From Octopus vulgaris (taxonomy: Eukaryota), in the NCBI GenBank assembly GCA_951406725.2, contig OX597830.1, positions 45,384,001-45,448,000 of the forward strand: 64,000 nt of DNA, written 5' to 3'. A model generated the notes under the pieces. The model did not search any database, was not told the DNA's origin, and was given only the letters and a program-made list of their open reading frames with translations. Both the position numbers and the translations under genes were made by a program. Below, in pieces: positions 13,936-44,676 of the stretch (position 1 is the first letter of the stretch; each line of letters begins with the position of its first letter).

Positions 13936-14872
13936 AAAAAGTCCGTTTCCTTGTTTGATTTTATGTTCTCGTCTCTCGTTGTGTTCTACGTTTATTTGTG
14001 GTGTCCTGTACTCATATATATATATATATATATATATATATATGCATGTATATATACATGTAGATGTAAGTATGTACATATATGTATGTATATATGCATA
14101 TATTTTATTTAATTATTATACTGCTATATGACCGAACACACGCGTTATTTCTCTTCTCCAAGTTTTTATTTGAATCATCACGACGCGCACTCTTTGACCT
14201 TTCCTCCCTGTCTGTCTGTCTGTCTTTCTCTCTACTTGTCTCTCTCCTTATTTTTCACCCTTTCTGGTTTCTTTCCCCTCTCTCTCTCTCTCTATCTCCT
14301 CCTTCTCCTCCTCCTCCTGACCAGAGGGTTGCTAAAACTTTCTTTCAGCTTCGTCCTTCAACAAGTATAGATCGACTTCTGTCCTTCGTCTCCGATTTTT
14401 CACATGCGTTCTAACTAATTTTTCCACCGTCCAGGCAAAAAAAGCCTTTATTGTCTGTTCCCTGTACTGTTTCTTTATTTGTACTGTTTTTTCTTCATTT
14501 GTATTGTTTTTTTTTCATTTGTATTGCTTTTACGTCCTGTTTTTGTCACTTGTTTTACCCCTCTGCAAAAGAATTTTATTTAATTCCTTTTGCAGGAAGG
14601 ACTGCTTCGACTGTGTTCTGTCCTTACCTTCGAAACACACTTTGAGTCGAACCAGGGACAGCTGATGAAGGGGAATTTTCCTTGTATTGTTTGTCTTGTA
14701 CTCTGTTTTTTCGTTGTTTAAAAAAAGTCCGTTTCCTTGTTTGATTTTATGTTCTCGTCTCTCGTTGTGTTCTACGTTTATTTGTGGTGTCCTGTACTCA
14801 TATATATATATGCATGTATATATACATGTAGATGTAAGTATGCATATATTTTATTTATTTATTATATTACTA
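13936..14872 (+). mobile_element. Non-coding ~0.79 kb-unit element with terminal direct repeats and hammerhead-like core (copy 1)
   Basis: aaaaagtccgtttccttg...cctgtactc...gatgtaagtatg is repeated 786 bp apart (13941 and 14727). The element sits in (TA)n and is homologous in reverse orientation to 41883-44676. Confidence 0.75.
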
Positions 14873-15804
14873 TATATATATATATATATATATATATATA
14901 TATATATATATATATATATATATATATATATATATAGAGAGAGGAGAGAGGTGGAGCAGAACAAGGTATTTTCCCAGCTGTGTGACTGAATAAACTAGTT
15001 TGTAATTAAGTCAAAGTGTTAACATCTTCAATTCAGGAGGCATTAAATGGCTAATTAGAAATAATTATGTGAAGAAGGAAAAAAAGTCATCAATGGCTAA
15101 TATTATTTCTCCTGCTTTAAATACAGTCTCCACAGGGTTACAATTTTCCACACATAACGTTGGGAACTAGCTTTATCCGCTCTTGTCCGCGTCTACATAT
15201 ATATAAACACGCATACATACACACACACACACACACACACAAACAGCCACTCTAACCTTTTCCTTAAAAGAGTCGCCCCTATACAATATTTCAGACACAA
15301 AACTGTAGCTTGCAACTTAGAACATACACACATGCATGCATGCATGTATGTATACATACGAGATTTTTAGATAATTATTGGGATTCGTAGAATTATGTCT
15401 TCTACTTCGATCCATTGTTAAGGTTGTTGATAGTGTAACACTGGCGCTGTTCTGTTTATGTTAAAGATTTCAGTAATATCTTCGATTTTTTCTAGTCCAT
15501 CTAAGATCTTCCAAAACATTTAGATTAGCTGAAGAGATCTGATAAAGTTGAAACACTTTCAGGTTGTTCACTGTAATGACAATGATCAGATTCCCTTCTC
15601 ACTAATTCTATATTTTATTTAATTTAAATTAATTTTGATTCCGAGATTGTCTCCTTTGTCTTCTTTGACCAGAATTAGTCATTAAGAGAATGTATTTTAC
15701 ACATCAATATCGATGTAATTTAAAATGAATAATTCTTGGTTCACGACATCAAGTATACCAGTGTCCCTGCACTATTGATTGATTTTATTATTAACTCGGG
15801 TGTT

Positions 15805-16020
15805 AAGGCGGCGAACTGGCAGAATCGTTAGCATGCCGGGCGAAACGCTGAGCAGTATTTCGTCCTTATGTTCTGAGTTCAAATTCCACCGAGGTCCACT
15901 TTACCTTTCATCCTTTCGAGGTCGATGAAATAAGTACCAGCTATGCACTGGGGTAGATGTAATCGACTAGCCCCCTCCTCTGAATTTCAGGCCTTGTGCC
16001 TATAGCAGAAAGGATTATCA
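15805..16020 (+). mobile_element. SINE family A, full-length, alternative tail
   Basis: aaggcggcgaactggcagaatcgttagc...ggccttgtgcctatagcagaaaggattat. Confidence 0.85.
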
Positions 16021-41014: not shown

Positions 41015-41126
41015 AATCTAGTTTGTTTTAAATTCACACAAACTGCTTCATACAAGCATGCTAGACAAAATTTACAGAATCTAGTTTGTTTTGAATTCAC
41101 ACAAACTGCTTCATACAAGCATGCTG
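41015..41126 (+). repeat. Local tandem duplication (~63-bp period)
   Basis: aatctagtttgtttt(a/g)aattcacacaaactgcttcatacaagcatgct occurs twice. Confidence 0.8.
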
Positions 41127-41882
41127 AGTAACCGTTAGACAAAATTTACAGTTAGTTGTCTAATACAAAAAAAATGGCCTACATGAAAATGTAATTCATA
41201 CACCCTCCAGCTATTCATACATATTTTTCAATATTTATCTTAACAGAAAATAGCTAGCAAAATTACGACACAACCTGCCACAAATACAGGGTTCGAAATT
41301 CACATAAATATTATAACATAACTTAAGAGATTTTTTTGTACTCACCCAGATGTGACACAGAAATTATTTTAAAACTGACAAGCAAAAAATTTTGGCGAAT
41401 TCCTGGAGCATAAAATAATTCCGTAAATGCCAAACACAAAGCACTAAGTGCATAAACTAAACAAGCAATCATAGCTTCCAGAATCCAATTGAACCTTGTC
41501 TCAGAAAAAAACTTTAACTGCCACAAAAAAAAAAGAAAAACTGGGTGTATAATTATCTCTGCTTATAAAGGTTTGCTAAGGTCTAGCCAATTTGTCTCAC
41601 AGTTCTGGCTAATAACACCTAGCTTCCCCCATTTTGACAATAGATTCATCCTGACCTTACAGTGCAGCATGAAAAATTGTTTACCTTTTTAATTTAACAT
41701 TATAATTTTCGTTCGGAGTTCAAATTCCACCGAGGTGGACTTTGCATTTCATCCTTTCGGGATCGATAAATTAAGTACCAGTTACGTACTGGGTCGATCT
41801 AATCGACTGGCTCCCGCCCCCAAAATTTTGGGCCTTGAGCCTGGAGTAGAAAAAAATTATAATTTCCTAACAATATATATAT

Positions 41883-44676
41883 ATAGTGTAATAAATAAAA
41901 GATATGCATACATACTTACATATATGTACTTACTTACATCTACATGTATATATACATGCATAGATAAATATATATACGTGAGTACAGGACACCACAAATA
42001 GACGCAGAACTCAACGAAAACGAAAACGTGAAAACAAGCATGGAACGGACCTTTTTTTTTTCACAACGAAAAAACAGAGTACAAGACAAACTACACAAGG
42101 AAAAATCCCCTTCATCAGCTGTCCCTAGATCAACTCCAGCGTGTTTCGAAGGTGAGGACAGAACACGACTCGTCGAACCAGCCCTTCCTGCGAAGAAATT
42201 AAAGAAAATTACTTCGCAGAGGGGTAAAAACAAGGAAAGAACAAAATGTGACACAAACAGGACGTAAAAATGATACAAATAAAATTACAAAATAAAATAC
42301 AAAATATAAATACAATTACAAAAAAATACAATACAAGAAATAAAAACAAACAAGAAAACAACCAAAGAGGGCCTTTTTTGCGTAGACGAGGAGAGATTCA
42401 AGGATCGCAAGAAAACCGTGTGTTTACAGTTAGGAGGCCGCATGCAAAAGGAAGTATTTTGGCCGGCTGTGAGAAAGATGAGGAGGAGTGAGAGAGAGAG
42501 AGAGAGAGAGAGAGAGAGAGAGAGAGAGAGATAGAGGAAGACAAACGGCTGTGAGAGAGATGAGGAGGAGTGAGAGAGAGAGAGAGAAAGGGAGAGGAGG
42601 GAAGGTTAAGCAAAGAGGTATAGTGTTTCGCGTCATAATCTCTTATTATAAAAGGCAGATTTTATCTGCCTCCCTTTGGGAGTTATACAAATCTACAATA
42701 TAGGATTTCTTTAATTACAATTTACCTTGCATTTTTAAGAGTACAATGCATTGCGTCATGCCAGGTCCAGTTTTTAAAATTTAAACTCCAATTAAGCAAA
42801 ATTTACAGAAAACTCACATTCTTGTGTGTGTGTCAAATGCTTTTCTTAGTCTGGTTTACACCACACGCAAACGCACACACACAGTGGGCAACGAATAAAA
42901 TGAAAGTAAATAGCGACAGAGTGATTTGAGGAAGCCTAAACTGAAAGTAATTAAACCACTACTCAAAAAATAAAAAAACACAGCAAACAGAAACAAATAA
43001 ATACATAACCATTTAGTCCTCACACAATTTCTTCAATTAGAATTTACCTAAGATTTTTCAAAGTACTCCATTCGCTCATGCCATAATATATTTCTTTCAA
43101 TTTCACCCCCAATTAAGACAAAATTCGAGAAAACTCAATATTTTAACATATCACTCCGAAAGCATTGATGTACATGTGTGCTTGCGAGAGTGTGTGTGTG
43201 TCATTCCTCACACACACGCATACACATACATATACAACTACATACAACTACATACACATACAACTACATACAAACACGTGTGTGTTTGTTATTAGTAAAA
43301 AGGCGCAAAAACACAACTCACTTATCATTCCAACACATTTGCAAAGACACACGGAGGACAGAAAAGGTAAATTGGTTTTTATTTTACTCTGTATATATTT
43401 TATTATATAATATTATATATAGATATATGTATACATAATTGCAGTATGAAACAGTGTTTATGTATAAACAGACGACACTTATATATAGTTACCAAGCCGC
43501 CCGAATTTACCTATTCATATTTAAATGAGAATATCAGAGCAAATCTCTTTAGTACATTCGTGAAAACACGTATTATACTTCGTAAACACTTCAACTACAG
43601 TTTTGTACAAAAATCGAAGTGTAATTTTAATTCCGTGAATTATGGGAGATTTTTTTTCCGAAATTTGTTCCTATTGTGTTTTCAAAATTTGTAATTCTGA
43701 CAAAAAATGGATACGAATTTCATTATATCAAGCAGCGAGTCAGAATTCGAAGGATTTTCTACTGAAGACCTTCATAAATCTAACTCTATGACTGAAAAAA
43801 AAAGCATCTTTATATAAGAGTGAAGTTGTGTGTCTGTCTCCTACGATTTCGATTCCTAACTACTCCCACATTTTGCGGTGCAGTTTAACCAAAAGCGGGT
43901 ATCTTATAGTCGTGATTCATATCGAGCCCTTCTGGGTATTAGCGTGCGTCTACGATGAGTCTACGATTTAAAAAAAATTTACCATCATATTTTTCCATTT
44001 TAATGCATTTTTTTCGCTTTTATATAAGGGAAGTAACTCTCTAAAAATATCTACGATGTGTCAACGATTTAAAAAATATTTACCTTAATTTTTTTTCAAT
44101 TTTTAATGCATTTTTTGGCTATAACTCTCTAAAAATGCTTATATAGTTATTTCCCTTACAACCCGAGCAACGCCGGGCGATACTGCTAGTTATATATAAA
44201 AACTGTACTGGGAGAAGAAGAAACGAATCGAATCGACGCGAGGGCGCTCAGTCATACAATAGTGTAATAAATAAAATATATGCATACATACATACATATA
44301 TGTACGTACCTACATCTACATGTATATATACATGCATATATAAATATATATACGTGAGTACAGGACACCACAAATAGACGCAGAACTCAACGAGAACGAA
44401 AACGTGAAAACAAGCATGGAACGGACCTTTTTTTTTACAACGAAAAACAGAGTACAAGACAAACTACACAAGGAAAAATCCCCTTCATCAGCTGTCCCTA
44501 GTTCAACTCCAGCGTGTTTCGAAGGTGAGGACAGAACACGACTCGTCGAACTAGCCCTTCCTGCGAAGAAATTAAAGAAAATTACTTCACAGAGGGGTAA
44601 AAACAAGGAAAGAACAAAATGTGACACAAACAGGACGTAAAAATGATACAAATAAAATTACAAAATAAAATACAAA
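41883..44676 (-). mobile_element. Retrozyme-like element copy 2 (~820-nt unit, ~420-bp direct repeats), split by a Helitron
   Basis: 41883-~42300 is nearly identical to 44259-44676. The sequence on both sides of the Helitron is collinear with the reverse complement of 14100-14200. Confidence 0.75.
42639..44189 (+). mobile_element. Non-autonomous composite Helitron
   Basis: 5' end TCTCTTATTATAAAA. 3' hairpin cccgagcaacgccggg followed by ...CTAG. Inserted at A|T with no TSD. A second 5'-like end TCTTTATATAAGAG occurs at 43807. Confidence 0.85.

Follow-up and report, generated by a model that had tools for sequence, protein, structure and literature searches.

Two copies of one non-coding repeat in a 64,000-nucleotide stretch of Octopus vulgaris DNA (GCA_951406725.2, contig OX597830.1, positions 45,384,001 to 45,448,000 of the forward strand; hereafter the window) raise the question of which ribozyme the repeat carries and how it is spread. 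A first-pass annotation of the window had read the repeat as a retrozyme-like family whose hammerhead boxes stand in type II order. From its sequence, the element reads instead as a new wiring of a known ribozyme, neither type II nor strictly type SGC, that works like a Penelope-mobilised hammerhead retrozyme. There is a good probability that it is a 765-825 nt non-coding repeat with Penelope-type ends, probably pasted in trans, whose split core, in the order cleavage site, GAAA, CUGANGA (blocks S, G and C), cuts after a GUU.

Copy 1 lies at 13936-14872 (+) and copy 2 at 41883-44676 (-), the same coordinates as in the first-pass annotation, and the two are 78-82% identical. Copy 1 comprises about 1.2 units with a period of 786 bp and a terminal repeat of 147-169 bp at offset 786, and has (TA)n runs on both sides; it starts about 105 nt past one predicted cut site and ends about 255 nt past the next (counted in the window; +292 on a reference copy). 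Copy 2 comprises about 1.5 units with two ribozymes and a 421-bp repeat at 97% identity; its 3' end at 41883 abuts a short (TA)n, and its period without the insert described next is 824 bp. The earlier estimates of the periods (786 and about 822 bp) and of unequal terminal repeats (about 150-190 against about 420 bp) are in good agreement with these measurements. Copy 2 is split at 42641-44189 (-) by a 1549-bp insert with a subterminal hairpin, which is missing from a tandem copy elsewhere in the genome (locus L033) and is, on its sequence, a later insertion. The insert had been reported as a Helitron of 1551 bp; its presence is clear, and it is putatively Helitron/Helentron-like. Ends resembling those of the insert also flank loci L021 and L061.

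The motifs in which GAAA precedes CUGAUGA, reported at three places by the first-pass annotation, were all recovered, with C3 at 14662 (+) in copy 1 and at 44491 (-) and 42118 (-) in copy 2. All six strand orders were scanned around them. The best site is the GUU at 14617, upstream of GAAA, which in all three motifs gives a helix I of 7-8 bp and a helix III of 4 bp together with the A15.1-U16.1 pair; the block order is site-GAAA-CUGANGA (S-G-C), with a linker of about 3 nt between the helix I and helix II strands. A descriptor of this order finds exactly these three motifs in the window and none in 60 shuffled windows. In copy 1 the whole split-core hammerhead, delimited by the descriptor and by tests of its six helices, spans 14558-14673 (+). 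Block S (14612-14623) holds the helix III strand TGTGT, the predicted cut after U17 at 14617 and the helix I strand CTGTCC; block G (14627-14639) holds CCTTC, GAAA (14632-14635) and the helix III strand CACA; and the 3' strand of helix I, GGACAG, runs directly into the core CUGAUGA (14662-14668) at 14656-14668. The two ribozymes of copy 2 lie at 44480-44597 (-) (G10.1 44560, U17 44535, G12 44520, C3 44491) and at 42107-42224 (-) (G10.1 42187, U17 42162, G12 42147, C3 42118). Helices I, II and III are thus present around the core with A15.1-U16.1 and G10.1-C11.1, the helix II strand being an upstream one.

The type II reading, with a cut at GUC 14648, takes its appeal from GAAA standing before CUGAUGA, and has practically no chance of being correct. 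At every NUH between the two boxes helices I and III amount to only 0-1 pairs, and the GUC is not conserved, being GUU in copy 2. The pairings ttcgac/gtcgaa and ctgtcc/ggacag, taken in the first pass for competitors of the fold, are instead part of helix IV and helix I, respectively.

The element is one of a large family. An exact core pattern has at least 675 matches in the genome against 0 for a reversed control, and a DNA search with two subfamilies returned 4095 and 1904 first-look candidates, the top matches being 94-100% identical. The tandem reference copies at L014 and L033 have periods of 765 and 790, within a family range of 765-825 nt; units have a GC content of 36-38% and are arranged head-to-tail with one hammerhead each. 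When a unit is doubled, the open reading frames (ORFs) beginning with methionine reach at most 64 aa in one subfamily and 190 aa in its counterpart, the latter being of low complexity and not common to both. A scan of the window with Rfam gave no ribozyme family among 112 weak matches, only microsatellite-driven noise of microRNA type, and a metagenome scan with the core pattern gave 0 matches. Contigs from four sequencing runs, none recorded as RNA, span the ribozyme region and show helix I variants and an N7 variant, such contigs carrying no strand, ends or phase. What is supported is a retrozyme-like family that is non-coding and terminally redundant, bears hammerheads, has ends of Penelope type and lacks the features of long terminal repeat (LTR) elements, and to this extent the first-pass annotation, which proposed a retrozyme-like non-coding family, was right. 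A sister element, at L019 (-) near 2063-2215 and at L088, has the same 3' tail and the six-helix fold with different helix letters, a GUC site and N7 = A, and is inserted beside a copy of the window family. An older relative (L033:940-1150 and L038:2560-2690; 2 genome matches to its exact pattern) has kept helices I and III and may form a helix II of 3 bp right after CUGAUGA, which would be the plain SGC form.

Two further groups of repeats in the genome carry the same fold. A looser pattern gave 653 matches of a second motif against 1 in its control, and for a decayed Naiad-type element 17 of the 30 loci have this motif at most 1.5 kb downstream of the C-terminus of the reverse transcriptase (RT). 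The RT is recognised by RVT_1 with an E-value of 1e-5, in a neighbouring frame and below Pfam's cut-off. A repeat of this genome, compared by eye, agrees with the published consensus of Naiad_Ovul and Naiad_Obim at the 3' end. A third pattern gave 12,314 matches against 144 (for example L155-L184). This group has tandem pairs 699-855 bp apart, exemplified by a 713-bp pyrimidine-rich non-coding unit at L156:1417-2260, and its first (TA)n begins 62-130 nt past the core in 30 of 30 cases. The core variants across the families are CUGA(U/A/G)GA and GAAA with sites GUU, GUC, GUA, AUC or AUA.

What sets the fold apart is the origin of helix II. In the window the strand GAAGG at 14596-14600 (+), in which 14596 is G10.1, pairs perfectly with CCUUC at 14627-14631 and keeps the G10.1-C11.1 pair, with a duplex energy of -4.6 kcal/mol; the bases after A9 offer the same CCUUC 4 bp, two of them G-U, after one skipped A, at 0.0 kcal/mol. 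For a wider comparison 84 distinct cores were picked by helices I and III alone and a partner for helix II was then sought. A perfect Watson-Crick partner of at least 5 bp is found upstream in 65 of them, against 22 of 2915 between-family swaps, and a downstream helix II with at least 3 Watson-Crick pairs in 3 of the 84. Three unrelated families, with the strands GAAGG, GGCTG and GACAC, all have G10.1 at 21 nt upstream of H17. Among the first 30 unselected matches of the 12,314-match family the upstream helix II is present in 18 and the downstream one in none, several of the others being 5'-truncated, and in 24 hand-picked copies of this family the upstream helix is 92% paired compared to 20% for the downstream alternative.

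These counts bear on the possibility of an ordinary type-SGC hammerhead, with an extra A after A9 and the GGGG downstream serving as helix II, for which the upstream match and helices V and VI (described below) would be an alternative or regulatory fold. Such a 4-bp downstream helix can form in 42 of 51 window-family cores, the 3-nt linker and helix IV agree with type SGC, and in HRIMA-1, too, A9 is followed by an additional base (supplement of PMC10085705). However, the downstream duplex contains 2 G-U pairs at 0.0 kcal/mol; it reaches 4 pairs in only 1 of 16 Naiad-family cores, and in the 12,314-match family it occurs in 0 of 30 and is 20% paired; and AGGGG already has a perfect partner in CCCCT. 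An ordinary SGC ribozyme is therefore improbable. Several observations do count against the proposed fold. The window family is also able to form the weak SGC helix II (4 bp, 2 G-U, 0.0 against -4.6 kcal/mol), and a helix of equal energy that traps G8 and A9 is possible in it. Helices II and V are near-invariant inside this family and draw their support from other families; since helix II does not vary within it, it is those other families that decide between upstream and downstream. Finally, among 20 matches picked for divergence helices I and III are kept in only 5, all 5 having the upstream helix II.

Three further helices complete the proposed structure. The 5' strand of helix IV (14602-14611, +) has its partner at 14646-14655, with two-sided changes in 6 of 10 pairs; the helix covaries, has 5-11 pairs in all 84 cores and occupies the place of the helix I-II interaction of Eckert 2023. 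Helix V pairs CCCCT (14558-14562, +) with AGGGG (14669-14673) directly after A9; at least 4 Watson-Crick pairs form in 49 of 55 cores of the window family and its sister, 46 with no unpaired base at the junction, and the pairing is found in 65 of 90 cores against 612 of 3255 swapped ones. Helix VI is a hairpin (14563-14595, +) that abuts G10.1, and a hairpin ending at the base before G10.1 is seen in 70 of 90 cores compared to 174 of 2700 shuffled sequences. The minimum free energy fold of 14550-14685 includes both V and VI (z -2.9). In a four-helix model of the 24 hand-picked copies 93% of cells pair and 13 pairs show two-sided changes, a level reached by 0 of 500 shuffles, with slid controls at 14-48%; a six-helix model of 16 copies (window family and sisters) is 92% paired with 16 two-sided pairs. 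The CUGAUGA and GAAA boxes, whose conservation the first-pass annotation had made its touchstone, are kept, and helices I, III and IV covary, with helix II supported by the between-family swaps. Less favourable to the six-helix model are the many two-sided helix I changes that stem from one divergent sister copy, and the decayed Naiad copies, in which helix V reaches at least 4 Watson-Crick pairs in 1 of 12 and helix VI is present in 5 of 12.

Read 5' to 3', the chain would run through the first strand of V, hairpin VI, strands of helix II, IV and helix III, U17, the helix I strand and the 3-nt linker, and then through the second helix II strand, GAAA, the strands of helix III, IV and helix I, CUGAUGA and the 3' strand of V. 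A four-way junction, in which V would stack on VI and helix II on the pair A9-G12, may rebuild the normal core. De la Pena and Flores are said to have found in 2001 that single-base insertions at A9/G10.1 are tolerated. The HRIMA-1 alignment, with its extra base after A9, is in line with a tolerated insertion there (PMC10085705).

The ends of the copies were mapped on L014 and L033 for loci that were the best or first pattern matches, leaning to young copies. In 80 of 83 loci the 3' end falls at +250 to +350 past the cut site, in two clusters, and in 77 of the 83 it is followed by (TA)n. The 5' ends lie at scattered positions, with an inverted piece there in 9 loci, and 26 loci cover one period or more. 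A fixed 3' end with an optional tail, truncated or inverted 5' parts, partial tandems and (TA)n are Penelope-like insertion marks, and the same end features are described for Penelope/Naiad (section 6 of PMC8557442). Free circular permutation of both ends was rejected on the fixed 3' end. An LTR element, or a terminal-repeat retrotransposon in miniature, was rejected as well, given the variable 5' ends and the lack of a purine run of at least 10 in one unit, with only A8GG in the other; this check covered ends and purine runs, with no comparison of a primer-binding site to tRNAs. The starts and ends whose mapping the first-pass annotation had proposed are thus variable at the 5' side and fixed at the 3' side, with no ordinary LTR pattern.

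The 5' ends also carry a trace of the predicted cut. Copies joined to (TA)n near the site were counted by eye. In the window family 23 of 28 distinct loci start at +1 to +10 and 5 at -1 to -20; in a narrower search, with all matches counted, 17 of 23 start at +1 to +3 and 6 at -2 to -5 (p 8e-5 against uniform). In the 12,314-match family a first search placed 19 of 22 starts at +1 to +12 and none at 0 to -9, and among the matches listed (the first 100 of 339) 51 of 58 start at +1 or +2 (p 5e-21). Of these 51, 17 are unambiguously at +1, and the other 7 of the 58 keep C17 though AT microhomology favours them. The pile-up is an indirect sign of cleavage in vivo at the predicted cut. Two points detract from this: TA microhomology biases the junction counts, as in the many starts at +8, and the footprint of the 12,314-match family comes from the first 100 of 339 matches.

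Alternatively, the fold may be real but catalytic no longer, or never, in this element, acting as a structural signal for a Penelope RT so that the pile-up would record stalling of the enzyme. In line with this, the majority of copies run across an intact site, cleavage by published SGC ribozymes is slow (0.007-0.19 per min; PMC10085705) and 8 of 9 Xenopus retrozymes failed to cleave in vitro. Nevertheless the core bases are all kept, with N7 varying as U/A/G and H17 as U/C/A, never G (the descriptor itself bars G17). Furthermore, the step in 5' ends coincides exactly with the scissile bond. By the time an RT reaches +1 it would have displaced the strands that pair in helices I, III and IV, so that the simplest explanation is that the enzyme runs off a cut 5' end. 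A non-catalytic fold is unlikely.

In the proposed life cycle a copy would be transcribed and its ribozyme would cut after U17, as the accumulation of 5' ends there indirectly suggests. A helper enzyme would then nick a (TA)n tract and prime about 275-345 nt downstream of the cut; the 3' ends are observed at this place and the enzyme is presumed. Linear, cut RNA would give run-off at +1, and uncut or re-ligated RNA would give read-through, with copies of up to about 1.7 units. Priming is internal to a monomer running from cut to cut, and yet most copies read through the site; the templates must therefore have been uncut or re-ligated. It may be speculated that roughly 25 bp in four helices would hold both cut ends together and so favour re-ligation to a circle of about 0.8 kb, and the chance that such a circular RNA exists is put at about even.

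The circle concerns the last step alone. It is compatible with all the rest that the ribozyme works and that copies exceeding one unit arise by read-through of linear transcripts from partial-tandem sources, or by re-use of the template, with no circle at all, and this is given only slightly less than an even chance. A fixed 3' end with partial tandems is typical of all Penelope elements (PMC8557442), no copy with three ribozymes on the same strand occurs among 90 loci, and the units are not highly self-paired. They are U-rich, about 50% paired and not rod-like, with folding energies of -131 against -108 +/- 8 and -141 against -136 +/- 7 kcal/mol (z about -3 and -0.6). When twin repeats were compared, as a single circular template would have them alike, a repeat's own twin was the closest in 3 of 20 cases, which favours neither kind of template. 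Linear read-through, on the other hand, has to account for priming internal to the monomer with 26 of 83 copies spanning at least one period, and circles have been shown for other animal retrozymes, namely those of type I (PMC7229834).

Mobilisation by a Penelope RT, as first suggested, agrees with the Penelope-type ends (80 of 83, with (TA)n); the link to a particular enzyme goes no further than a candidate. A young, intact RT-GIY-YIG element of 753-782 aa, with copies mostly 96-99% identical, is found at L309 (C3:61674300-61679800) and L310-L315. It lies in (TA)n, its end likewise being TTACT, with or without a tail, in front of (TA)n, and by inference is a candidate helper. Its linker resembles that of Neptune. 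Where copies of the window element lie near the 753-aa element, they entered (TA)n independently of it. The young element's own 3' end, judged by eye, holds a minimal type I hammerhead with a U3-A8 core variant and a palindromic helix III. A role for Penelope enzymes is not helped by the finding that no RT lies near the element at 180 loci or in the window; by blastn, in which the unit has no homology to the Naiad-type 3' untranslated regions (UTRs) of the genome, the fold alone being common to them; or by ages, Naiad being decayed and the window element young. Nor was an autonomous element with the window family's own ribozyme found in the 180 loci and 20 further RT loci. A Penelope origin has been argued for vertebrate retrozymes (10.64898/2026.07.22.740005).

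Naiads themselves (PMC8557442) share with the window element the (TA)n target, 5' ends that may be truncated or carry an inverted piece, partial tandems and an optional tail of a few tens of nt, and the octopus Naiad type of this genome shares the split-core fold at its 3' end. The window element differs in having no ORF, neither for RT nor for GIY-YIG, and its sequence is not homologous to the 3' UTR of Naiads. Craig 2021 describes Naiads as lacking canonical hammerheads and marks, with no explanation, motifs called 'HHR_core' and 'HHR_half_core' (PMC8557442). The published consensus file was read by eye at 19 CTGATGA places (26-44 of 62), other N7 letters lying outside the search. Eight of the 19, the Naiad ends of Beroe, three Acropora, two Octopus and two others, read as split-core, with 6-bp upstream helix II strands of differing sequence and, in one, only a 2-bp helix I; nine are unfitting or coding. 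The remaining two, the consensus before Naiad_Hcon and one more nematode Naiad, read by eye as clean type CSG with a I-II helix, of which only two sequences were known to Eckert 2023 (PMC10085705).

The relation to known hammerheads can now be stated. Type SGC, which was shown to cleave (Eckert 2023, PMC10085705), is alike in block order, the linker of about 3 nt, the full core and an extra helix whose strands lie beside the helix II 10.x and helix I 2.x strands. It differs from the window element, where the 10.x strand of helix II is upstream, CUGANGA is not joined to helix II and the A9/G10.1 position takes up two further helices, V and VI; Eckert 2023 assumes that block C is never interrupted. 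Type SGC is reported from metatranscriptomes only and from no genome of a known organism (PMC10085705), whereas the window fold occurs thousands of times in the genome of an animal. Type CSG (PMC10085705) has the same cyclic order and helix IV, with the window chain opened at A9/G10.1 and not after helix III; given the two nematode Naiad ends that read as CSG, the window wiring looks like a circular permutation of it. The PK (pistol-like) hammerhead (Zhan 2024, PMC11300833) also has the helix II region rebuilt by long-range pairing with hammerhead chemistry kept, but has CUGANGA before GAAA and A9 joined to G10.1, neither of which holds in the window fold. No hammerhead opened at A9/G10.1 was met in the literature as covered, including the accessible parts of PMC13725137, PMC3088659, PMC4209133, PMC10162972 and 10.64898/2026.09.16.752053, subscription journals and bioRxiv supplements lying outside that coverage. 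Animal non-LTR retrozymes (PMC7229834, 10.64898/2026.07.22.740005) are alike in being non-coding, with GC below 40%, one hammerhead per unit, head-to-tail units, no LTR and Penelope-type mobilisation. They differ in carrying type I ribozymes, in lying in arrays where the window element has mostly 1-1.7 units and is not rod-like, and in unit length, which is 170-400 nt (PMC7229834) or up to 972 (10.64898/2026.07.22.740005) against 765-825 nt here.

The window holds other features besides. A six-order scan finds a candidate hammerhead of type I order at 53962-54034 (+), with CUGANGA at 53962, GAAA at 54023, GUU at 54034 and helices I, II and III of 4, 6 and 8 bp. Two families of dispersed short repeats, which we take to be like short interspersed nuclear elements, occur at 9315-9808, 12090-12317, 15804-16011, 35799-36024, 41707-41852 and 45151-45374 (first family) and at 22516-22939, 38121-38519, 57468-57859 and 60846-61139 (second), and a 198-bp inverted repeat lies at 35593-35790.

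In its widest and most tentative form, held at somewhat under even probability, the proposal is that this is an active seventh hammerhead wiring with strands non-circularly permuted and the core opened at A9/G10.1 and rejoined through a four-way junction. It would be the ribozyme so far missing from Naiads of different animal phyla, and also that of many retrozyme families, this genome having more than 13,000 core matches, with its cut recorded in 5' ends, and its self-clamped ends would re-ligate to circles of about 0.7-0.85 kb that are copied by Penelope enzymes. If true, this would overturn the inseparability of CUGANGA and helix II, and with it the view that only six hammerhead permutations exist, as set out in PMC10085705, and likewise the published statement that Naiads lack hammerheads (PMC8557442). 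Split-core hammerheads are invisible to Rfam and standard descriptors, and the four-way junction in the core may offer a new place for aptamer insertion. The step in 5' ends at +1 would allow cleavage by a ribozyme during the Penelope cycle, a role hypothesised since 2014, to be read from the genome, and non-circular hammerheads would move from unplaced metatranscriptome RNAs to animal chromosomes, in more than 10,000 copies.

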